Shown here: one piece after another, positions 53,155-64,000 of the stretch | How the letters are laid out: each line of letters starts with the position of its first letter | Numbering within the stretch: the first letter of the stretch is position 1 | Source of the DNA: an uncultured Thiotrichales bacterium | GTDB lineage: Bacteria > Pseudomonadota > Gammaproteobacteria > UWMA-0217 | Direction: 5' to 3' | Assembly: GCA_964614535.1 (NCBI GenBank) | Contig: CAZTOZ010000023.1 | Coordinates: 81,552 to 145,551, forward strand | Length of the DNA: 64,000 nt | Translations under genes and position numbers: made by a program | Notes under the pieces: model-generated | Database searches by the model: none | Told to the model about the DNA's origin: nothing | What the model saw: only the letters and a program-made list of their open reading frames with translations

Positions 53155-54819
53155 GTGGAAAGAATCTGGCTGAAGAACTATCCTCCCGGCATCCCGGCCG
53201 AGATCGACCCCGACAAGTACCGGAACATACCCGAGATCTTTGCACACAGCGTTTCGCGGTTCGCCTCGCTGCCGGCCTGGTCCAATCTGGGGCGAACACT
53301 GCGCTTCGCCGAGCTCGATCGACTGTCACGGGATTTCGCCGCCTGGCTGGTGGCCGAGGCAGGGTTACAGCCGGGTCAGCGGGTGGCGCTGATGATGCCC
53401 AACCTGCTGCAGTATCCGGTGGCCCTGTTCGGCGTGCTGCGGGCCGGGCTGGTCGTCGTCAATGTCAATCCGCTCTATACCGCGCGGGAGCTGGAACATC
53501 AGCTCAAGGACTCCGGCGCCAGCGCCATCGTCATTCTCGAAAACTTTGCCGACAAGCTGGCGGCGGTGATCGACCGCACCGCGGTCGAGACGGTGGTGAC
53601 CACCCAGGTGGGTGATCTGGCGGGCTTTCCCAAATCAGCGCTGGTCAATTTCGTCGTCAAGCGGGTGAAGCGGATGGTGCCACCCTTCTCACTGCCGGGG
53701 CGGACCACCTTTCCCGCGGTGCTGCGGGCCGGCCGGAGACGGCCGTTCACCGATGCCTCCCCGGCGCCGGAGGAGACCGCCTTTCTCCAGTACACCGGCG
53801 GCACCACCGGCGTGGCCAAGGGGGCGGAGCTGACACACCGCAACATGGTGGCGAACATGCTTCAGGCCGGGGTCTGGGCCTCGGCGAAGATGAACGAGGG
53901 GGAGGAGGTCTTCATCGCCGCGCTGCCGCTCTACCACATCTTCGCGCTGACGGCGAACCTGCTCTACGGGCTGGAGATCGGCGCGAAGAACGTCCTCATC
54001 ACCAATCCCCGCGATTTCTCCGGCTTCGTCAAAACCTTGGCCGCGGAGCGTTTCACCTTCATGACCGGCGTCAACACGCTGTTCAACGCCCTGCTCGAAA
54101 CCCCCGGTTTCGACGACCTCGATTTTTCGGCTTTCAAGGTGACGCTGGGCGGTGGCATGGCGGTCCAGCAGCCGGTGGCGGCACGCTGGAAGAAGGTCAC
54201 CGGGGTCAACATCACCGAAGCCTACGGCCTGACCGAGACCGCGCCGGCGGTCTGCATCAACCCGCTGGATCTCGACCACTTCAACGGCATGATCGGCCTG
54301 CCGTTGCCCTCCACCGAGGTGGAGGTCCGTGACCCCGACGGCCGTCCACTGCCAACCGGAGAGCGGGGCGAGCTGTGGATTCGCGGCCCGCAGGTGATGA
54401 AGGGCTACTGGAACCGGCCCGAGGAGACGGCCAACGTTTTCGACGCCGACGGCTGGCTGCGCACCGGCGACGTCGCCATCATCGACGACGAGGGGTACGT
54501 GAAGATCGTCGACCGGCTCAAGGACATGATCAACGTCTCCGGTTTCAACGTCTTCGCCAACGAGATCGAAGAGGTGATCGCGGCTCATCCGAAAGTGCTG
54601 GAGGTGGGGGTGGTCGGCGTGCCGGACGAACACTCGGGTGAAGCGGTCAAGGCCTTCGTCGTGAAAAAGGATGCGTCACTGACCGAGCAGGAACTGAAAG
54701 ACTACTGCCATGAACGGCTGACCGCCTACAAATGCCCCAAGGCAGTCGCCTTTCTGGAGGAGCTGCCGAAGACCAACGTCGGCAAGGTATTGCGCCGCGC
54801 GCTGCGGGCGCTGGGCTGA
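53155..54819 (+). CDS. fadD: long-chain-fatty-acid--CoA ligase
   Basis: AMP-binding motif (YTGGTTGVAKGA) and the FACS signature region. N-terminus matches E. coli FadD (WLNRYP). GTG start. Confidence 0.9.
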   Translation: MERIWLKNYPPGIPAEIDPDKYRNIPEIFAHSVSRFASLPAWSNLGRTLRFAELDRLSRDFAAWLVAEAGLQPGQRVALMMPNLLQYPVALFGVLRAGLVVVNVNPLYTARELEHQLKDSGASAIVILENFADKLAAVIDRTAVETVVTTQVGDLAGFPKSALVNFVVKRVKRMVPPFSLPGRTTFPAVLRAGRRRPFTDASPAPEETAFLQYTGGTTGVAKGAELTHRNMVANMLQAGVWASAKMNEGEEVFIAALPLYHIFALTANLLYGLEIGAKNVLITNPRDFSGFVKTLAAERFTFMTGVNTLFNALLETPGFDDLDFSAFKVTLGGGMAVQQPVAARWKKVTGVNITEAYGLTETAPAVCINPLDLDHFNGMIGLPLPSTEVEVRDPDGRPLPTGERGELWIRGPQVMKGYWNRPEETANVFDADGWLRTGDVAIIDDEGYVKIVDRLKDMINVSGFNVFANEIEEVIAAHPKVLEVGVVGVPDEHSGEAVKAFVVKKDASLTEQELKDYCHERLTAYKCPKAVAFLEELPKTNVGKVLRRALRALG

Positions 54820-54914
54820 CCCCGATCCGGCATCGGCCTTCCCGTCCCGGGAAATACCCCCCGGGGCGGGGACAGGCTATGATATGCCGCCTCCGGAACC
54901 TGGATTCTTCGACC

Positions 54915-56807
54915 ATGAGCAGCAGCTACAACGCCGCCGACATCGAGGTGCTGAGCGGCCTCGAGCCGGTGCGCAAACGCCCCGGCATGTACACCGACAC
55001 CACCCGTCCCAACCATCTGGCGCAGGAGGTGATCGACAACAGCGTGGACGAGGCCATCGCCGGCCATGCCAGACGCATCGACGTGGTGCTGCACAAGGAT
55101 GGCTCGCTGACGGTGGCCGACGACGGCCGTGGGATGCCGGTGGACATCCATCCGGAGAAGGGCCGTCCGGGGGTCGAGGTGATCCTCTCCACGCTGCATG
55201 CCGGTGGCAAGTTCTCCAACAAGAACTACCAATTCTCGGGTGGTCTGCACGGTGTCGGCGTCTCGGTGGTCAATGCACTGTCGAAACATCTGGAGATCTG
55301 GGTCAAGCGCGATGGCAAGGAGTACAACATCGCATTCGGCGGTGGTGAGCTGGTGTCGCCGCTGGAGGTGGTGGGCAGTGTTGGCAAGCGCAATACCGGC
55401 ACCACCCTGCGCTTCTGGCCCGATCCGCAATATTTCGATTCGGCGAAGTTCTCGGTGCGTCAGCTCAAGCATGTGCTGCGCGCCAAGGCGGTGCTCTGCC
55501 CAGGGCTGCATATCACCTTCGAGGACGAGACCACCGGGGAGAAGCTGGAGTGGCACTACGAGGATGGTCTGGTGGACTATCTGCTCGAAGCCATCGGCGA
55601 TGCGCCACGACTGCCGGAGAGGCCGTTCACCGGCTCGATGGAGGGGGAGAGCGACGCGGTGGCGTGGGCGCTGTCCTGGCTACCCGAAGGGGGGGAGGCG
55701 GTCACCGAGAGCTATGTCAATCTGATCCCCACCCCCCAGGGTGGCACCCATGTGAACGGGCTGCGCACCGGGCTGACCGAGGCGGTGCGGGAATTCTGCG
55801 AGTATCGCAACCTGTTGCCCCGCGGCGTCAAGCTGGCGCCCGACGACGTCTGGGAGCGCTTGAGCTTCATCCTGTCGGTCAAGCTGGCCGATCCGCAGTT
55901 TGCCGGCCAGACCAAGGAACGGCTGTCGTCGCGGGAAGCGGCCGCGTTCGTCTCCGGCGTGATCAAGGACGCCTTCTCGGTCTATCTGAACCAGCATGTG
56001 AGCATAGGCGAGCAGATCGCCCAGCTCGCGATCGACAATGCCCAGCGACGTCAGCGGGCCGGCAAGAAGGTGGTGCGGAAAAAGGTCACCAGCGGCCCGG
56101 CGCTGCCCGGCAAGCTGGCCGACTGCACGCTGCAGGACCTGTCGCGTACCGAGCTGTTTCTGGTGGAAGGGGATTCCGCCGGCGGCTCGGCCAAGCAGGC
56201 GCGGGATCGCGAATTCCAGGCGATCATGCCGCTGCGGGGCAAGATTCTGAACACCTGGGAGGTCGACGCCGACCAGGTGCTCGCATCCCAGGAGATTCAC
56301 GATATCTCGGTCGCCATCGGCGTCGAACCGGGATCGGGTGATCTCAAGGGGCTTCGCTACGGCAAAGTCTGTATTCTGGCCGATGCCGACTCCGACGGCC
56401 TGCACATCGCCACCCTGATCTGCGCGCTCTTCTTTCGTCATTTCCGGCCGCTGGTCGAGGCCGGACACGTCTATGTCGCCATGCCGCCGCTGTATCGCAT
56501 CGACGTCGGCAAGGAGAAGTTCTATGCGCTGGACGATGCCGAGCGCGACGGCATTCTCAACCGCCTGCAGGCAGAGAAGAAGAAAGGCAAGATCACGGTC
56601 ACCCGCTTCAAAGGGCTGGGGGAGATGAATCCGTTGCAGTTGCGGGAAACGACGATGGCGCCGGAGACCCGCCGCCTGATCCGCCTGACGATCGACGAAG
56701 AGCACGAGACCTCGAAGACCATGGACATGCTGCTGGCAAAGAAACGCGCCGCCGACCGCAAACAGTGGCTGGAGGCCAGCGGCGATCTGGCCGAAGTGGT
56801 GCCGTAG
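54915..56807 (+). CDS. parE: DNA topoisomerase IV subunit B
   Basis: GHKL ATPase and TOPRIM domains (LVEGDSAGGSAKQARD). At ~630 aa it lacks the GyrB-specific insert. Confidence 0.9.
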   Translation: MSSSYNAADIEVLSGLEPVRKRPGMYTDTTRPNHLAQEVIDNSVDEAIAGHARRIDVVLHKDGSLTVADDGRGMPVDIHPEKGRPGVEVILSTLHAGGKFSNKNYQFSGGLHGVGVSVVNALSKHLEIWVKRDGKEYNIAFGGGELVSPLEVVGSVGKRNTGTTLRFWPDPQYFDSAKFSVRQLKHVLRAKAVLCPGLHITFEDETTGEKLEWHYEDGLVDYLLEAIGDAPRLPERPFTGSMEGESDAVAWALSWLPEGGEAVTESYVNLIPTPQGGTHVNGLRTGLTEAVREFCEYRNLLPRGVKLAPDDVWERLSFILSVKLADPQFAGQTKERLSSREAAAFVSGVIKDAFSVYLNQHVSIGEQIAQLAIDNAQRRQRAGKKVVRKKVTSGPALPGKLADCTLQDLSRTELFLVEGDSAGGSAKQARDREFQAIMPLRGKILNTWEVDADQVLASQEIHDISVAIGVEPGSGDLKGLRYGKVCILADADSDGLHIATLICALFFRHFRPLVEAGHVYVAMPPLYRIDVGKEKFYALDDAERDGILNRLQAEKKKGKITVTRFKGLGEMNPLQLRETTMAPETRRLIRLTIDEEHETSKTMDMLLAKKRAADRKQWLEASGDLAEVVP

Positions 56808-56815
56808 ACTCCGCG

Positions 56816-58033
56816 CTACGGGCCGTTGCCGTAGCGGCGCTCGACGTAGCGTTCGACGATCGCCTGAAACTCGACGGCGATGTTGTCGCCCTTGAGCGTG
56901 ACATCCTTTTGTCCGTCGATGTAGACCGGCGCCACCGGCCGCTCTCCGGTACCGGGCAGGCTGATGCCAATGTCGGCCTGCTTGCTCTCGCCGGGACCGT
57001 TGACCACGCAACCCATGACCGCCACGCTCATGTTCTCGACACCGGGATAACGGCTGCGCCAGTCCGGCATCTTCTCCCGCAGGTAGTGCTGGATGTCGGC
57101 CGCGAGCCGCTGGAAATAGTCACTGGTGGTGCGGCCGCAACCGGGGCAGGAGACCACGGCCGGGGTGAAGGCCCGTAGCTCCAGCGCCTGCAGAATCTGC
57201 TGTGCGACCACCACCTCCTCGGTACGCGAGCCACCCGGCTCGGGCGTCAGCGAGATGCGGATGGTGTCGCCGATACCCTCTTGCAGCAGAATCGAGAGCG
57301 CCGCCGTGGAGGCGACGATCCCCTTGCTGCCCATGCCCGCCTCGGTCAGGCCGAGATGGAGCGCATAGTCACACTGGCTGGCCAGCGCCCGATAGACGGT
57401 GATCAGATCCTGCACTCCGCTCATCTTGCAGGAGAGGACGATATGGTCGCCGGGCAGCCCCAGTTCCTCCGCCTTGCGCGCGCTGGAGAGCGCCGATTCG
57501 ATCAGTGCCTCGTGCGTGACTTCGTCGAGCGCCTTCGGCTGGGCTCGGGCGGCGTTCTCATCGAGCTTCTCCGCCAGGATCTGTTGGTCCAACGATCCCC
57601 AGTTGACGCCGATGCGCACCGGCTTGTCGTATCGGCAGGCAAACTCGATCATCTGGGCGAACTGTTCGTCGCGTTTCTTGCCACGGCCCACATTGCCCGG
57701 ATTGATCCGGTACTTGGCCAACGCCTCGGCACAGGCGGGATATTTCGCCAGCAGTTTGTGGCCGTTGAAGTGAAAGTCGCCGACCAGCGGCGTGTAGCAC
57801 CCCATCTTCGCCATCCGCTCGCGGATCTGGGGTACCGCGGCCGCCGATGCCTCGTTGTTGACGGTGATACGCACCAGCTCCGAACCGGCGTTGGCCAGTT
57901 CCGCCACCTGTGCGGCGGTACGAATGGGGTCGGCGGTATCGGTGCTGGTCATCGACTGCACCACGATCGGCGCATCACCGCCAATGGTGACCCCGCCGAC
58001 ATCGACGGGACGGGTTTTGTGTCTGTTGTGCAT
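56816..58033 (-). CDS. ispG: 4-hydroxy-3-methylbut-2-enyl diphosphate synthase (flavodoxin)
   Basis: Full-length GcpE. The C-terminal Fe-S Cys motif is CPGCGRT...[10 protein letters not shown]. Confidence 0.95.
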
Positions 58034-58188: not shown

Positions 58189-59022
58189 TTACTTGCCTTC
58201 GGCCTTTGCAGCCGGCTTCGGCGCTTCGGCAGCCGCTTTCTTGGACTGGGCTTCGAACGCCTGGCGCTGGGCCTGCATCTGCTTCTGGAACTCGGCGAAG
58301 GCCTTCTGCTGGGCTTCCATGGCAGCCTTACGCTGGGCCTGCATCTGCTGCATCATCGCGCTGTTGTCGGGACGCGCGGGACGCTGAGGCATCTGCATGG
58401 CAGGACGCTGGGGCGGTGCCATCATCGGCGCGGGGGCGGCAGCCTGCCCCGCTGCGGCAGGTGCGGCTGCGGGCGCAGCAGCAGGTGCGACCGGAGCCGG
58501 TGCCCAGCCGTAGCCACGGCCGTAGTACGGACGACCGTAGTAGTTGTCGCCGGACCAGTTCTGGTAGCCGTCACCATAACCGTAGCCGCTGCCATAACCG
58601 TCGCCATAACCGCTGCCATAGCCGTCACCGTAACCGTAGCCGCTGCCATAGCCGTCGCCATAACCGCTGCCATAACCGTCACCGTAACCGCTGCCATAGC
58701 CATGACCACGACCCTTGCCACGGCCACGAGCCTTGCCGGAGATGCTCAGGTTGAAGGAACCATCGACATCACCATCGACATCGCCGTCGGTGTAACCGGA
58801 ACCATAGCCGCTGCCGCGGGAAGTGCCGTAACCGGAACCGTAGCCGCGGGTGTCGCCATAGCCGTAACCACGGGTATCGCCATAGCCATAGCCACGGGTA
58901 TCGCCGTAGCCGTAGCCGCGACCATCGCCCCAGCCGGAGCCATCATCGAACCAGTCGCCAGCGACGGCGGCGGAAGTGGAAACTGCGATTGCAGCTGCAA
59001 GTGCAAGCTTGGTGTATTTCAT
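58189..59022 (-). CDS. secreted Gly/Tyr-repeat low-complexity protein, sulfur-globule-protein-like (Sgp-like)
   Basis: Signal peptide MKYTKLALAAAIAVSTSAAVA. Tandem GYGDTR and GYGSGYGDGY repeats, then an Ala/Pro/Gln/Met-rich tail. GAGGA ribosome-binding site. A dedicated terminator follows. The ORF-finder TTG extension was not used. Confidence 0.7.
   Translation of the reverse strand: MKYTKLALAAAIAVSTSAAVAGDWFDDGSGWGDGRGYGYGDTRGYGYGDTRGYGYGDTRGYGSGYGTSRGSGYGSGYTDGDVDGDVDGSFNLSISGKARGRGKGRGHGYGSGYGDGYGSGYGDGYGSGYGYGDGYGSGYGDGYGSGYGYGDGYQNWSGDNYYGRPYYGRGYGWAPAPVAPAAAPAAAPAAAGQAAAPAPMMAPPQRPAMQMPQRPARPDNSAMMQQMQAQRKAAMEAQQKAFAEFQKQMQAQRQAFEAQSKKAAAEAPKPAAKAEGK
58556..58930. repeat. in-frame tandem nucleotide repeats (18-24-nt units) encoding the GYG repeats
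   Basis: Visible periodicity (ccgtagccgctgccataaccgtcgccataaccgctgccatagcc...). This is a coding repeat, not a CRISPR array. Confidence 0.6.
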
Positions 59023-59926
59023 TACGATGTCCTCGTATTTTTGAACAAAAGAAGGTTGTTGTTGGTAACTCAAGAGTCGCGGCGGGGATTCCTCTCCGTC
59101 AGTCCGTTGACAACCCGGTTGCCGTTCCTCGAGCGTTGCATAAGTATATTCTAATATATCGAATTTAGTAAACCCGATACCGGCTCCCGCTTGATGTATC
59201 TCAAGCTTTTTAAGTCACTGGTTATCAAGGAGATTTCCTCTAAAACCACGACAGCCGACGGCTGCTTTAGGGTAACCCCTAGTGAAATACAAATTCACTT
59301 TTCGCCGCGGCCAAACCGTGGCCCTCGTGACCCACGTGCCACGGTTCGGGAGGGAACCAAAAGCATTGCCGGGAATCAGTATCCTGAGCGGACGTCATCG
59401 TCCTGCCGTTGGATAAAACGTTGGCGGGGAGGCGTCGGCAACAGCCGTGTCGCCCACATGGCCTCCCTGCCGGGTGTCGATTCCTGAAGGGTGGATACCC
59501 CATCGCTCGGTCGCGGATAGTAGGGGCGACGGGCATGGCCGGCAACGACAAGACGACGTATCCGTCATCTGAGCAAGATGAACGGTACCCTGGTACTGCC
59601 ACCAGTGACCGTGGTTCAAAGCCCGGGCGTCGGAGACAGGAGACACGAGGATGTGCAACCGTTCCAGGCGCCAAGAAGGGATTAGTGGTATGATTCGCAC
59701 GACAAGATGTCATTTTCCCATCCGAATGGAAACAACTGTTTACGATGCAATACAGTAGTACGCAGTAAAATACGCCGCGAATCCAGGCCGGGTCGCTTCC
59801 CGGTTTGTGAAAACATCTGTAATTTCAACATCATGGAACGGAGCCGGAGGGAGCCGGCGGTGTATTTGACAATATAATGAACGGGCACAAAGCCCCAATT
59901 CCCGTCGCAGGGGGAGACTGAGAGCC

Positions 59927-60679
59927 TTGAGAATAGCCTACCTAGAAGACGACCCGGACCAGGCGCGCCTGAGCCGCCTCTGGCTCGAAGACGCCGGTCA
60001 CCAGGTAACTTGTTTCGAGACGGGGCGCGAGCTGGTGCGAGTGCTGCGTTCCGAGAGCTTCGACCTGTTGGTGCTGGACTGGATGGTGCCCGATATGTCC
60101 GGCATCGAGGTACTCGACTGGACACGCAGCCATTACGACTGGAACGTGCCGGTACTGTTCTGCTCCCAGCGGGGCAGTGAGGAGGACATCGTCCGCGCGC
60201 TCGAAGCCGGTGCCGACGACTACATGGAAAAGCCGCTCAGCCAGCGGGAACTGATCGCACGCGTCGGCGCGTTACAACGCCGCATGCTGTTGGGCAGAAG
60301 CAACTCGCAATCGCTGGAGTTCACGCCATACACCATCGACCTCGCCAACCGTACCATCGCATTGGACGGCATACCGATCGAACTCACCCAGAAGGAGTAC
60401 GATCTGGCGGTCTTCCTGTTCAAGAACCTTGGGCGAGCGATCTCTCGCGGTCATATCCTCGACACGGTCTGGGGCATGTCCCCCGATCTCAACACCCGAA
60501 CCGTCGATACGCACATCAGCCGACTGCGCAAGAAACTCCGGCTGGGGCCGGAAACCGGGTGGGTACTCACCTCCATCTATCAGCACGGCTACCGTCTCGA
60601 CCAGATCGACAAGCAGGTCTCCTCCGGTGGTGGCATGAGCAGTGCAGCGGAAATGCAGGACGCTGGCAACGCCGGCTGA
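59927..60679 (+). CDS. OmpR-family response regulator
   Basis: Receiver domain (DLLVLDWMVPDMSG) and a winged-helix output domain (ELTQKEYDLAVFLFKNLGRAISR...YRL). TTG start with a GGGGAG ribosome-binding site 10 nt upstream. Confidence 0.85.
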   Translation: MRIAYLEDDPDQARLSRLWLEDAGHQVTCFETGRELVRVLRSESFDLLVLDWMVPDMSGIEVLDWTRSHYDWNVPVLFCSQRGSEEDIVRALEAGADDYMEKPLSQRELIARVGALQRRMLLGRSNSQSLEFTPYTIDLANRTIALDGIPIELTQKEYDLAVFLFKNLGRAISRGHILDTVWGMSPDLNTRTVDTHISRLRKKLRLGPETGWVLTSIYQHGYRLDQIDKQVSSGGGMSSAAEMQDAGNAG

Positions 60680-60830
60680 TCGGACCCGTCTCTCGGGCGA
60701 ACCCTGATATCACGGCCATACTCTTTGCGTCGCATGGTGCTGGCAGGTGCCAACGCCATGTGACGGGCACGGCGAGTCGCCGGTCCTGACGTAGTAGAAT
60801 AGGGGGCCTACAGCTTCTGACGGTGATCCC

Positions 60831-61346
60831 ATGACATCCGAATCCGACCTGCGTGACCTGGCACCGACGACGCCCTCCCGAGACCCTGCGGGCGGTGTCC
60901 CATCCCCCACCGCCGACGACCAGATTCTGGCCGAAGTGCGTGAAATTCTCATCGGCCCGCAACTGCGCGCGCTCGACGAGCGCTTTGGGCGTGTCGAAAA
61001 GATGGTGCTGACGCACAACAGCCGGCTGCTCAAGTTACTCGACCGCCGGATCACCGTCGTCGAGGAGCTGGTGAAGAGCCGGATCAGCAGATTGCAGGAG
61101 AAGCTCGATGCCCAGGATCACGCCATCGACGATCTCGACACCCGGCTGCTCGATCAGAGCCGGGCTCTGCGCGCCGAGTTCGATGCCCTGGACGCCTCGC
61201 TGAAGCAACAACTGTCGGCACTGCAAGCCACTCTCGATGCCGAGACCGCGGCGCTGCGCGAAGGTGCCCGCAGTCACGACAGGGATCTGGCGAAGCTGTT
61301 CCAGGAAATGGCCGCCCGGCTGCTCGATGGCAACCCCGACCGATGA
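60831..61346 (+). CDS. coiled-coil hypothetical protein (171 aa)
   Basis: Heptad-rich sequence (EELVKSRISRLQEKLDAQDHAIDDLDTRLLDQSRALRAEFDALDASLKQQLSALQATLD). Confidence 0.6.
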   Translation: MTSESDLRDLAPTTPSRDPAGGVPSPTADDQILAEVREILIGPQLRALDERFGRVEKMVLTHNSRLLKLLDRRITVVEELVKSRISRLQEKLDAQDHAIDDLDTRLLDQSRALRAEFDALDASLKQQLSALQATLDAETAALREGARSHDRDLAKLFQEMAARLLDGNPDR

Positions 61347-62857
61347 CCACCTCGTCCGACCTGAAAAAGCTGCAGTCACTGCTGTTCGGGCCACAGCAGG
61401 AGAGGCTCGACACGCTGGCCGCGCGGCTGAATGATCCGGAACAGCGCGCCGACGACGTCGCCGACGTCATCGTCGACGCGTTGCAGCGCACGCCCAACAA
61501 GGAAAACCTCTCCCGCGTCATATCGGAACCCACGACCGAAGCGATCCGTCTCTCCATCCAACGCGACAGTAAGCACGTAGCCGGCATCCTCTATCCGGCG
61601 GTACTGCCGGCCATCCGCAAATCCATCGAGCAGACGATGCAGAACTTCATGGAGGGCATCGATCTGCTGGTGAAACAGCAGTTCTCGATCGACTCGCTGA
61701 AATGGCGGTTCGAGTCCCTGCGGACCGGCGTGCCTTTTCACGAGATCATGCTACGCAACCTGCTGCGTTACCAGGTCGAGCAGCTCTTTCTGATCCATCG
61801 TGAAAGTGGGCTGTTGATCGAGCATGTCTCTTGCTCGGAGGAGATTGGCAGGGACCAGGATGCCGTCTCCGCGATGCTGACGGCGATCGAATCGTTCGTT
61901 CGGGAATCGTTCGCCGACGAGAACGACGCCGACGACCGGCTCGACCGCGTCACCGTGGGTGACCGCATCGTCTATCTGGAGCACGGCCCCCATGCCATCG
62001 TCGCCAGCGTGGTTCGGGGCGTGGCGACACCGGCCTATCGGGAAAAGCTGAAACAGATCAACGAGGAGGTGCATGCCGCCTACAGCCGGCAGCTGCGTTA
62101 TTTTTCCGGCAGGGAAGGGGACATCGATGGTCTGAAAAACCTGCTGTCGCAAGGGCTGGCCCGTGAATTCCAGGTCCAGGAGAAGCGCAGCGAAGAACAA
62201 AAGGCAAGACGGCTCAAAATGCTCGGCGGATCAATGGCCGCGGCTCTGCTGCTGGTGGCCGGCTACCTCGCTTGGGGGGCCTGGGAAAAATCCCGCGTCA
62301 ACCGGCTGATGGACCAGCTCACCCAGCGGGACGGCATCGTCACCACGCGCCTCGACAAGCACAATGGCCGGTGGCGAATCAGCGGCCTCAGGGATCCGGC
62401 GGCCATTCCGCCCGACGACATCGTTACGCGACTCGGCCTCGACGACGACGTCCAACTGCAATTCGAGCCCTACCTCTCCCTCTCCCCGGCGGTGGTGATC
62501 GAACGCGCCCGAAAAAAATTGAACATTCCGGCCACGGTGACGTCTGAACTGGAAGGGGAGACGCTGCGGCTGTCGGGGCCCGCCCCGCTGGACTGGTATC
62601 TGTCGCTGCCACGGACCGGCGGGTTACCGCCAGGCAGCGCCCGCCTCGCCCCCTCCGGCCTAGAACTCGATCCCGATGAAGTCAGGGCACTGCTGGCGGC
62701 GCGTCTGCCCGGGATCGAACCGGTTGAGATTCACCGCAACACACAAGGCATACTGGAAATCAGGATCGGTAGCGACGTCGCGGCGGAGAAGGCCGCCGCC
62801 ATCGAACGGCTCGCAACCATGCTGGCGCCGCGGGCAAAAATCATCATCTCGGGCTGA
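61343..62857 (+). CDS. membrane protein with cytoplasmic roadblock/LC7 (MglB-like) domain and C-terminal periplasmic BON-like repeats
   Basis: ATGA overlap with the upstream gene. Residues ~150-230 fit the roadblock pattern (ESGLLIEHVS...DAVSAMLTAIESF...RVTVGDRIVYLEHGPHAIVASVVRG). A single TM (MAAALLLVAGYLAWGAW) is present. Confidence 0.55.
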   Translation: MTTSSDLKKLQSLLFGPQQERLDTLAARLNDPEQRADDVADVIVDALQRTPNKENLSRVISEPTTEAIRLSIQRDSKHVAGILYPAVLPAIRKSIEQTMQNFMEGIDLLVKQQFSIDSLKWRFESLRTGVPFHEIMLRNLLRYQVEQLFLIHRESGLLIEHVSCSEEIGRDQDAVSAMLTAIESFVRESFADENDADDRLDRVTVGDRIVYLEHGPHAIVASVVRGVATPAYREKLKQINEEVHAAYSRQLRYFSGREGDIDGLKNLLSQGLAREFQVQEKRSEEQKARRLKMLGGSMAAALLLVAGYLAWGAWEKSRVNRLMDQLTQRDGIVTTRLDKHNGRWRISGLRDPAAIPPDDIVTRLGLDDDVQLQFEPYLSLSPAVVIERARKKLNIPATVTSELEGETLRLSGPAPLDWYLSLPRTGGLPPGSARLAPSGLELDPDEVRALLAARLPGIEPVEIHRNTQGILEIRIGSDVAAEKAAAIERLATMLAPRAKIIISG

Positions 62858-62860
62858 ACC

Positions 62861-63355
62861 ATGATCTCTTACCGCAAGAAAATCTGTCTGATCGGCGATT
62901 TTGCCGTCGGCAAGACGAGCCTGGTCCGGCGATACGTCGATCATGTCTTTTCCGAAGACTACATGACCACCGTCGGCGTCAGCATCGTCACCCGTGAGGT
63001 ACAACTGGATCGCAATGCCCGGGTCAAACTGGTCATCTGGGACATCGCCGGCGCCGACAAACTGACGACCGTCTCCCGCGCCTATCTGGCGGGCGCCAAC
63101 GGCTATATCCTGGTGGCCGACGGCACGCGCCGGCAGACGCTGGAAACCGCGATGGAACTGGAAAAGGCGGCCAATGCCGCGCTGAACCATCCCCGTAGCA
63201 TCAAGCTGATCAACAAGCACGATCTGGCCGATGCCTGGGAGGCCGACGACCAGGATGGCTTGGCCGACTGGCAAATAACCAGCGCCAAATCGGGAGAAGG
63301 GGTGGAGCAGGCATTTCTCACGTTGGCCCGTCGCTTTCTGGACGATGCTCGATAA
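62861..63355 (+). CDS. Ras-like small GTPase (MglA/Rup-type)
   Basis: G1 GDFAVGKTS, G2 Thr in YMTTVG, G3 WDIAGAD (no Gln after DxxG), G4 NKHD, G5 SAK. Confidence 0.8.
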   Translation: MISYRKKICLIGDFAVGKTSLVRRYVDHVFSEDYMTTVGVSIVTREVQLDRNARVKLVIWDIAGADKLTTVSRAYLAGANGYILVADGTRRQTLETAMELEKAANAALNHPRSIKLINKHDLADAWEADDQDGLADWQITSAKSGEGVEQAFLTLARRFLDDAR

Positions 63356-64000
63356 CTGCTTTCATCCATTGCTGGCGGCCCGGTACCATCCCGCCATGCT
63401 CGAAGTGGACCGCAACGGCAGCCTGCGGCGCTGGAGCGGCGATCTCGGCTGGTACGGCCTGGCACCCCGCACCGAAATGATCGGCACACCGGCGGAAGAT
63501 CTCCTGCCGGTCATTATCGGACTGGATCTCGATACCGCGCAGACGCTGCCGCTCGTCCAGCTTCCCGGCGGGCAGCCGGCGGATATCGTCATCGAGCCCG
63601 ATGCCAACGGCGACGGCAGCCGTATCTTTCTGCTGGCGGCACAGGAAACCCACGACACGATTCAGCCGGTCCAACAGCACAGCCACGAAATCACGCTGCT
63701 CTATCAGAAACTGCAGTCGCTGTCCGAACAACTGCAACAAAAAAATATCGAGCTGGAGCACGCCATCGATGCGCGCAACCAGTTCATCTCCGGCGTATCG
63801 CACGAATTCCGCACACCGATCACCACGATCCTTGGCCATTGCGACCTGCTCGCCTCCTACTGCACGAAGGGGGACGACGACATTCAAAACAGCTTTCAGG
63901 CCATCGACAAAAACGCAAAATACCTGCTGGCCCTCATCGACAACCTGTTGGAGCAGGGCGAGATCAGCGCCAAACGGCTGGTCATCACACCGGCCCCCCT
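63345..64000 (+). CDS. cytoplasmic sensor histidine kinase (3' end outside window)
   Basis: HisKA H-box (ISGVSHEFRTPITTILG) after a ~150-aa N-terminal domain with no TM. The start overlaps the GTPase gene end by 11 nt, and the frame stays open to nt 64000. Confidence 0.8.
   Translation, partial: MLDNCFHPLLAARYHPAMLEVDRNGSLRRWSGDLGWYGLAPRTEMIGTPAEDLLPVIIGLDLDTAQTLPLVQLPGGQPADIVIEPDANGDGSRIFLLAAQETHDTIQPVQQHSHEITLLYQKLQSLSEQLQQKNIELEHAIDARNQFISGVSHEFRTPITTILGHCDLLASYCTKGDDDIQNSFQAIDKNAKYLLALIDNLLEQGEISAKRLVITPAP

Follow-up and report, generated by a model that had tools for sequence, protein, structure and literature searches.

A probable Group 1 Rup small-GTPase module encoded with a phosphorelay in an uncultured Thiotrichales bacterium

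What does a small Ras-like GTPase do when its gene lies between those of a membrane protein and a histidine kinase (HK)? This question is raised by five co-directional open reading frames (ORFs), called on the plus strand at positions 59927-64000 of the 64,000-nucleotide stretch analysed here (the window), which comes from contig CAZTOZ010000023.1 (assembly GCA_964614535.1, positions 81,552 to 145,551) of an uncultured Thiotrichales bacterium. The answer favoured here, with a probability of about 60%, is that these genes form a small-GTPase module of the Group 1 Rup (Rup1) type and that its output passes into a four-step phosphorelay by the mechanism proposed below. The assignment is based on gene content and order, on the motifs of the GTPase and on best matches.

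Gene content, order and recurrence

Wuichet and Søgaard-Andersen defined Group 1 Rup in 2014 as Ras-like GTPases with eukaryote-like G motifs and no Gln in G3 (PMC4316618). These GTPases are never coupled to MglB homologues, and three more conserved genes always lie in their neighbourhood (PMC4316618). The first two encode a cytoplasmic coiled-coil protein and a protein in which a conserved unknown domain is combined with a helix in the inner membrane and, in many cases, with OmpA at the C-terminus; the third encodes an HK or GGDEF/EAL output with an invariant Gln in its N-terminal region (PMC4316618). The authors proposed that the catalytic Gln is supplied in trans by an as yet unnamed GTPase-activating protein (GAP), and likened the system to the actinobacterial conservon (PMC4316618). 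Later papers named the clade Rup1 and grouped it with Asgard RasL and eukaryotic Rab/Ras/Rho/Ran (bioRxiv 10.1101/2024.02.28.582541), and in the published trees Rup1 members are the bacterial GTPases nearest to eukaryotic Rab/Ras/Rho/Ran (PMC4316618; bioRxiv 10.1101/2024.02.28.582541). A literature search, with most subscription journals outside its scope, found neither experimental work on any Rup1 member nor a paper assigning a roadblock/longin fold to Rup1 partners.

The genes and domains of the locus are as follows.

59927-60679, plus strand: OmpR-type response regulator (RR), 250 amino acids (aa), TTG start; Response_reg and Trans_reg_C
60831-61346, plus strand: coiled-coil protein, 171 aa; heptad pattern, no transmembrane (TM) segment
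61343-62857, plus strand: membrane protein (Rup1 'Unc' protein), 504 aa; N-terminus inside, single-pass
61343-61735, plus strand: helical N-terminal part of the membrane protein, residues 1-131, with five helices in the model
61736-62098, plus strand: predicted cytoplasmic roadblock/longin-superfamily domain, residues 132-252; proposed GTPase-regulating platform
62219-62287, plus strand: TM helix, residues 293-315, from hydropathy and model
62330-62854, plus strand: periplasmic part, residues 330-504; three predicted BON-like beta-beta-alpha-beta units
62861-63355, plus strand: Rup1-type Ras/Rab-like small GTPase, 164 aa; Pfam Ras
63345-64000, plus strand: 5' part of the gene for a soluble hybrid HK; ATG at 63345, ORF continuing past the window end
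63345-63641, plus strand: predicted divergent PAS-fold N-domain of the kinase, residues 1-99, common to Rup1 output proteins
63672-63677, plus strand: kinase Gln110-Gln111, Gln111 being the invariant Gln of Rup1 outputs

The locus has a single-domain GTPase within the 150-240-aa range and without the G3 Gln, a coiled-coil gene, a gene for a domain plus TM helix, and an output protein with the invariant Gln. The same four conserved components stand in the same order as in the described system, and an HK is one of the described output types. The C-terminal OmpA domain, which the description gives as 'often' present, is absent from the membrane protein, which ends in BON-like repeats instead, and the output is embedded here in a full relay of hybrid HK, histidine phosphotransfer (Hpt) protein and OmpR-type RR. 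The gene set was therefore already described in silico in 2014, and the window copy is a compact variant without OmpA and with a full phosphorelay. The earlier note on this DNA, made from its letters, had cited that work only loosely; to its knowledge, a roadblock domain fused to a TM/BON-like periplasmic module had not been characterised in a gammaproteobacterium. Both conserved domains were left 'unknown' in the 2014 paper; the predicted models suggest two additions for the whole family: the unknown domain would adopt a fold of roadblock/longin type, and the output domain would be a PAS fold bearing a Gln-Gln pair on its linker helix.

The genes are closely packed downstream of the regulator. 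A 151-bp gap separates the regulator from the coiled-coil gene, which overlaps the membrane-protein gene by 4 bp; a 3-bp gap then leads to the GTPase gene, which overlaps the kinase gene by 11 bp. Genes past the window end were read from a 145-kb metagenome contig (L001) that carries the exact 504-aa protein. There an Hpt gene (110 aa, L001 13526-13858), outside the window, overlaps the end of the kinase gene, and with it the operon counts six genes and encodes a His-Asp-His-Asp phosphorelay that leads to a transcription factor. Five co-directional packed genes with two overlapping junctions had been proposed beforehand, and both the arrangement and all five gene identities were borne out. The kinase was rightly called cytoplasmic, having no TM segment. 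For the two-component part, the HK and the OmpR-type RR were recognised; the fused receiver, the Hpt gene and the conserved PAS-like N-domain had been missed.

The membrane protein has at least 593 relatives in species-representative genomes of Acidobacteriota, Gemmatimonadota, Nitrospirota, Planctomycetota, Armatimonadota, Cyanobacteria, Desulfobacterota and Gammaproteobacteria, and its named gammaproteobacterial relatives are 38-47% identical to it. A word-indexed search returned 110 homologues, most of them 580-830 aa long and annotated "OmpA family protein"; the 504-aa protein is homologous to such proteins over 80-100% of length. Among 80 aligned homologues, 55 carry a C-terminal Pfam OmpA domain and 6 carry BON. 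Pfam finds no OmpA in the membrane protein itself, and the OmpA-less state is also seen in its closest relatives of about 500 aa (P0001-P0012).

Locus statistics were taken from the best 80 of the at least 593 relatives, among which metagenome-assembled genomes of Acidobacteriota dominate, with each gene called from the first start codon following a stop. A membrane-protein ORF could be called in 79 stored loci. The GTPase gene lies directly downstream of it in 68 of these and anywhere in the stored flank in 71, and the gene immediately upstream encodes a coiled-coil homologue in 62, a minimum estimate from single-sequence phmmer. The coiled-coil/membrane/GTPase arrangement recurs beyond chance. 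Several loci depart from it. The GTPase gene is nearby on the opposite strand in L037 and L040 and upstream in L082, and the Desulfomonile-type membrane proteins (L015, L068, L083), of about 720 aa, have no GTPase within the stored flank. One homologue (L028) reaches 1337 aa.

The gene that follows the GTPase, called in 65 loci, varies in enzymatic type. It encodes HATPase_c in 30 (HisKA and a receiver in 25 of them, Hpt in 17), a SpoIIE/PP2C phosphatase in 6, an HD-GYP protein in 3 and a sigma-54 activator in 2; PAS-only and stand-alone N-domain proteins also occur. The N-domain of the window kinase, of about 115 aa, is common to at least 26 of the 65 proteins. An RR followed at a distance by HK and Hpt is kept in gammaproteobacterial relatives (L004, L026, L048, L078, L002). 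In one of them, Marinicella sp. W31 (L002 11850-13225), a Band_7 (stomatin/flotillin-like) and NfeD gene pair stands directly after the module. This pair was not seen in the other loci inspected by eye; a link to membrane microdomains in Marinicella is possible.

The GTPase and its candidate platform

The 164-aa GTPase matches Pfam Ras (4.6e-26) and Roc (4.3e-23). Its motifs are G1 GDFAVGKT (residues 12-19), switch-I Thr37, G3 WDIAG, G4 NKHD and G5 SAK, and nucleotide binding is therefore expected from a full set of intact motifs. The closest solved relatives are Thorarchaeota Rab and Rab1/Sec4/Rab8 (E about 1e-22 to 1e-20, with Thorarchaeota Rab and Rab1 at 3.8e-22). Aligned to H-Ras, Lys18 corresponds to Lys16, Phe14 to Gly12, Thr37 to Thr35 and Ala65 to Gln61; Ala65 also aligns with the Gln of Thorarchaeota Rab. 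Family statistics were compiled from 71 members taken from the related loci. None of them departs from the P-loop Gly/Lys/Thr, DxxG, NKxD or SAK, and 68 of the 71 keep the switch-I Thr. At the Ras-Gln61 position Glu (38 members), Gln (9) and Ala (7) are the residues counted, so that Gln is absent in 62. The Ras-Gly12 position is aromatic in 69 of 71 (Phe in 64, Tyr in 5) and is Phe14 here (window 62900-62902). An aromatic residue at this position is a hallmark of the GTPase family, and catalytic models must accommodate it.

In Ras, any bulky residue at Gly12 blocks GAP-assisted hydrolysis, and changes at Gly12 and at Gln61 both cripple hydrolysis. With Phe at the Gly12 position and no Gln61, hydrolysis by the Rup1 GTPase should therefore have to rely on a partner, if what is known of Ras carries over. 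The same two features would also suit a GTPase that does not cycle at all and serves as a structural subunit of a membrane-associated sensor complex, permanently bound to GTP or locked on its nucleotide, along the lines of the conservon analogy drawn in PMC4316618. We regard this explanation as improbable. The conserved switch-I Thr and the invariant DxxG, NKxD and SAK motifs fit a working switch, and the neighbouring gene always encodes a domain of the GTPase-regulator type.

That neighbouring gene product, the 504-aa membrane protein, matched no Pfam or NCBIfam family. Its only Kyte-Doolittle 19-residue windows above 1.6 define a TM helix at residues 293-315, which falls inside a model helix spanning residues 284-328. 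The AlphaFold2 model, built from an 80-sequence alignment, has a mean predicted local distance difference test (pLDDT) score of 87. It begins with five helices (residues 4-128), followed by a domain at 132-252 with pLDDT 72-97 and the elements H132-140, E141-152, E158-163, H166-190, E202-205, E208-214, E218-226 and H230-252 (H, helix; E, strand), predicted to run in the order alpha-beta-beta-alpha-beta-beta-beta-alpha. Beyond the TM helix, residues 332-502 form three beta-beta-alpha-beta units (pLDDT 92-98), for which Foldseek returned the YscD periplasmic domain, the dual-BON protein DolP and BonA.

For the cytoplasmic domain, Foldseek returned Mon1-Ccz1, LAMTOR, Ego3, TRAPP, AP sigma/mu and MglB. 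Several of the solved roadblock/longin superfamily members match the predicted model significantly, which suggests that residues 132-252 belong to this superfamily. Roadblocks have an N-terminal helix; longins lack it and have an extra C-terminal helix that occupies the same position (PMC10933270). The element order of the window domain, with an N-terminal helix and one C-terminal helix, is formally that of a roadblock, yet longins superpose better: they score higher and align over 121 residues, against about 100 for roadblocks (Asgard Roadblock3 9.4, MglB 9.0 over 102 residues, Streptomyces Robl_LC7 9.0, LAMTOR 8-9, MglC 8.5). A profile search of the Protein Data Bank (PDB) with the membrane-protein family gave matches only to the OmpA domains of the homologues. 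The eukaryotic and Asgard platforms Mon1-Ccz1, TRAPP, Ragulator-Rag and GATOR1/FLCN have no detectable sequence homology with the domain, which differs from them in being a single predicted domain within one polypeptide that also contains the TM helix and periplasmic sensor domains.

The pairing of such a domain with a GTPase bears some likeness to MglA-MglB of Myxococcus and Thermus, in which a Ras-superfamily GTPase likewise adjoins a roadblock-type alpha/beta sandwich protein and hydrolysis depends on a partner. The earlier note had gone further and drawn a parallel to the MglA/MglB/RomR polarity module. A cell-polarity or motility module of this type is, in our judgement, very improbable. 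MglA carries Thr at the position of the conserved G3 Asp (PMC3000849) and forms a separate family, whereas this Asp is kept in WDIAG (Asp61 here) and in 71 of 71 family members. The invariant DxxG Asp therefore sets the window GTPase apart from MglA (PMC3000849), and its nearest relatives are Rabs. MglB is a soluble, single-domain Robl_LC7 homodimer that is recognisable by sequence; the window domain lies inside a 504-aa membrane protein, gives no Robl_LC7 sequence match and has better longin scores, and the locus has no stand-alone MglB. Furthermore, the regulator is of the DNA-binding OmpR type, with a Trans_reg_C winged helix, and no RomR-like protein is encoded; outputs elsewhere are kinases, phosphatases, HD-GYP proteins and sigma-54 activators; and no motility genes are adjacent.

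The actinobacterial conservon (CvnA-D, Mfp) offers a further comparison, being an operon of an HK, a roadblock-fold protein, an extra protein and a small GTPase that has been proposed to form a membrane-associated signalling complex resembling a G-protein-coupled receptor. It differs in having a membrane-sensor kinase (CvnA), a soluble, Pfam-recognisable Robl_LC7 protein (CvnB), a DUF742 protein (CvnC), an MglA-group-2 GTPase (CvnD) and no RR. In the window, by contrast, the membrane carries the roadblock/longin protein and not the kinase, which is soluble; no Robl_LC7 or DUF742 match was found.

The coiled-coil protein (171 aa) has no Pfam match above threshold and many weak matches of coiled-coil type. 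Five to seven of eight heptad a/d positions are hydrophobic across residues ~30-170, and no hydrophobic segment is present. Its weak matches to ZorA and FliD were set aside as generic coiled-coil matches, that to ZorA being far under its cut-off. The ZorA match, to the C-terminal part (E 0.033), together with the resemblance of the homologues' OmpA domains to MotB, PomB and Pal, could be read as pointing to a MotB/Pal-like envelope anchor or a Zorya-like stator or defence system with the GTPase as an accessory. This reading is scarcely credible, since no multi-TM partner resembling MotA, ExbB or ZorA is present, the TM helix of the membrane protein has no acidic residue, and PADLOC finds nothing for either the coiled-coil or the membrane protein.

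The coiled-coil family has a conserved N-terminal motif, K.RDILFG.QMR. A similar short motif opens both the coiled-coil protein (ILAEVREILIGPQLRAL, 60915-60974) and the membrane protein (DLKKLQSLLFGPQQERL, 61349-61408), the membrane-protein family version being LE.LR.LLLG.E. An hhalign comparison of the coiled-coil family with the N-terminal region of the membrane protein gave a weak link over 20 columns (E 0.005, probability 7%). The shared motif may be a docking motif or a relic of common origin.

Several proposals of the earlier note can be judged against these results. It had noticed Ala in place of the catalytic Gln (Ala65, at Ras-Gln61) and canonical nucleotide-binding motifs, which are indeed intact, and the BON-like character of the periplasmic module agrees with the YscD, DolP and BonA matches. 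It had also placed an MglB-like roadblock domain at about residues 140-240; a roadblock/longin fold is supported at 132-252 by AlphaFold2 and Foldseek, and 'MglB-like' was too specific, as there is no sequence match. On the model and the motifs, none of the outcomes it had listed as contrary to its proposal (a different fold, an unconserved neighbourhood, a GTPase without nucleotide binding) was found. The idea of a route from envelope to GTPase to phosphorelay fits the anatomy in general terms; the parallel with MglA/MglB/RomR has been given up.

Output kinase, phosphorelay and proposed mechanism

The full kinase (508 aa, L001 12003-13529) comprises the PAS-like N-domain, HisKA (Pfam 3.2e-14), HATPase_c (6.1e-29) and a receiver (Response_reg 1.2e-17), and has NCBIfam HK matches. 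Its H-box is SHEFRTP, with His153 as the phosphorylatable position, and it lacks any TM or hydrophobic segment. The Hpt protein matches Pfam at 4.5e-11 and has His48. The regulator matches Response_reg (3.2e-24) and Trans_reg_C (2.7e-20), with Asp51 in an LDWMVPD motif; it falls under every NCBIfam equivalog cut-off and is therefore neither PhoB/OmpR itself nor another named regulator. As His153, the fused receiver, Hpt His48 and RR Asp51 are all present, a complete His-Asp-His-Asp relay is encoded. The regulator is presumed to be the terminal acceptor.

An AlphaFold2 model of the kinase N-domain, made with 53 representative homologues, has a pLDDT of 95.8. It consists of helix 3-14, strands 17-21 and 26-32, short helices within 34-57, and strands 66-72, 78-85 and 92-98. 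This predicted five-stranded antiparallel sheet with short intervening helices matches solved PAS domains, and the N-terminal region of Rup1 outputs is accordingly predicted, on the model, to be a divergent PAS domain unseen by Pfam. A single long helix (100-142) then runs from the PAS domain into the HisKA dimerisation and histidine phosphotransfer (DHp) domain. Gln110-Gln111 lie about three turns into this signalling helix. Among 25 sequences taken from the loci, none departs from Gln111 and at least 90% have Gln110; in 54 representatives from a library of 1.8 billion proteins, conservation reaches at least 90% at each of the two positions. Compared with other PAS-linked sensor HKs, the window kinase has a PAS domain that Pfam PAS models do not see and that is specific to neighbours of Rup1 GTPases, carries the invariant Gln-Gln on its linker helix, and would have the GTPase, rather than a small molecule, as its presumed ligand. 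A word-indexed homologue search with the N-domain gave no matches, and armadillo repeats of APC, offered by a PDB profile search, were dismissed as chance matches. An hhalign comparison of the roadblock/longin-like domain with the kinase N-domain showed no similarity (probability 0.2%); the two have different folds.

TBC RabGAPs supply a catalytic Gln in trans to Rabs. An equivalent role could be played here by the PAS-like N-domain of the output, which would then be the GAP, with the membrane and coiled-coil proteins serving only to tether or localise. This Gln-in-trans hypothesis is stated in PMC4316618. It gains from the invariance of Gln111 and the at least 90% conservation of Gln110/Gln111 over outputs of differing enzymatic type, as well as from the usual absence of Gln after DxxG in the GTPase family (9 of 71 have it). 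Three turns into a helix predicted to enter the DHp dimer would be an unusual site for a catalytic finger, and the strongly conserved roadblock/longin-like domain would be left without a role. We consider it unlikely as it stands; it overlaps with the explanation preferred here, and the two are not mutually exclusive.

The preferred explanation, a Rup1 module driving a phosphorelay, can be laid out as a sequence of proposed steps. The periplasmic BON part (elsewhere also OmpA) would report an envelope or peptidoglycan-related state. This signal would alter the cytoplasmic roadblock/longin platform, which is probably a dimer and is likely to associate with the coiled-coil protein. Like the platforms that act on MglA, Rag and Rab GTPases, the platform would determine whether Rup carries GDP or GTP. 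Rup-GTP would bind the PAS-like domain of the output and switch the output through the signalling helix. Since the output here is the hybrid kinase, phosphate would pass via Hpt to the OmpR-type regulator and change transcription. The partner in hydrolysis could be the platform itself, or else the Gln that is invariant in output proteins. The more specific proposition within this scheme, that the platform is the guanine nucleotide exchange factor (GEF) and/or GAP of a bacterial Rab/Ras-like GTPase that gates a dedicated PAS domain on interchangeable outputs, is put forward tentatively.

Several points weigh against this explanation. The protein contacts, GTP binding and hydrolysis, and kinase regulation are all proposals drawn from genes and predicted models. 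No Pfam Robl_LC7 or Longin match was obtained in any of the 80 homologues at E <= 1, so that the fold follows from a predicted model. The invariant Gln sits on a helix expected in the dimeric coiled coil of the kinase, and it may have a structural rather than a catalytic role. The window copy lacks OmpA, so its envelope input may differ from that of most of the family. Finally, the locus statistics come from crude ORF calling on a taxonomically skewed sample, the best 80 of at least 593 relatives.

If the explanation is correct, the order of events would be from an envelope sensor to a G protein and on to a kinase, phosphatase, cyclic di-GMP enzyme or sigma-54 activator. This would amount to a widespread bacterial transmembrane pathway of the 'receptor, small G protein, effector' kind that senses the cell envelope. 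Longin/roadblock platforms would then pair in bacteria with Rab/Ras-type and not only MglA-type GTPases, and platform-type regulation of Ras-like GTPases would not be confined to MglA, archaea and eukaryotes. Such a finding would bear on the origin of eukaryotic Rab/Ras regulatory logic. The window locus is valuable as a compact example with an easy read-out, the phosphorylation of the OmpR-type regulator.

DNA flanking the module

The module lies on the chromosome, and its surroundings show no trace of a mobile element. Upstream lie housekeeping genes (window 54732-58033) for a ParE/GyrB-type topoisomerase subunit on the plus strand and IspG/GcpE on the minus strand; the topoisomerase subunit has 630 aa in the contig annotation and 691 aa as the window ORF, which has an earlier start. 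Scans for promoters, terminators and repeats at the operon start and in the spacer between the regulator and coiled-coil genes gave nothing interpretable above shuffle expectation, and Rfam had no match on the whole window or the upstream spacer.

Between these genes and the regulator, a minus-strand gene (window 58189-59073) encodes a protein of 294 aa. It has a signal-like segment at its N-terminus, long repeats rich in Gly and Tyr (GYGYGDTR, GYGSGYGD) and a tail rich in Ala, Pro and Gln. Its match to the Pfam sulphur globule protein family (SGP) is sub-threshold (E 6.5e-4, 20.9 bits against a cut-off of 26.7). This sequence resemblance suggests that the host may be a sulphur-storing, sulphur-oxidising gammaproteobacterium.

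The Sgp-like gene and the regulator gene are divergent and separated by a spacer of ~850 bp (59074-59926), the GC content of which is 0.54-0.57, compared with 0.62-0.65. No convincing ORF was found in it, and no Rfam match even at E <= 1. Positions 59270-59700 fold strongly on the minus strand, with a minimum free energy (MFE) of -179.7 kcal/mol (z = -3.84, 0 of 100 shuffles as good, MFE near the centroid); the plus-strand fold has z = -2.16. A structured leader for the Sgp-like gene is one possible reading of this segment, an unknown RNA another.

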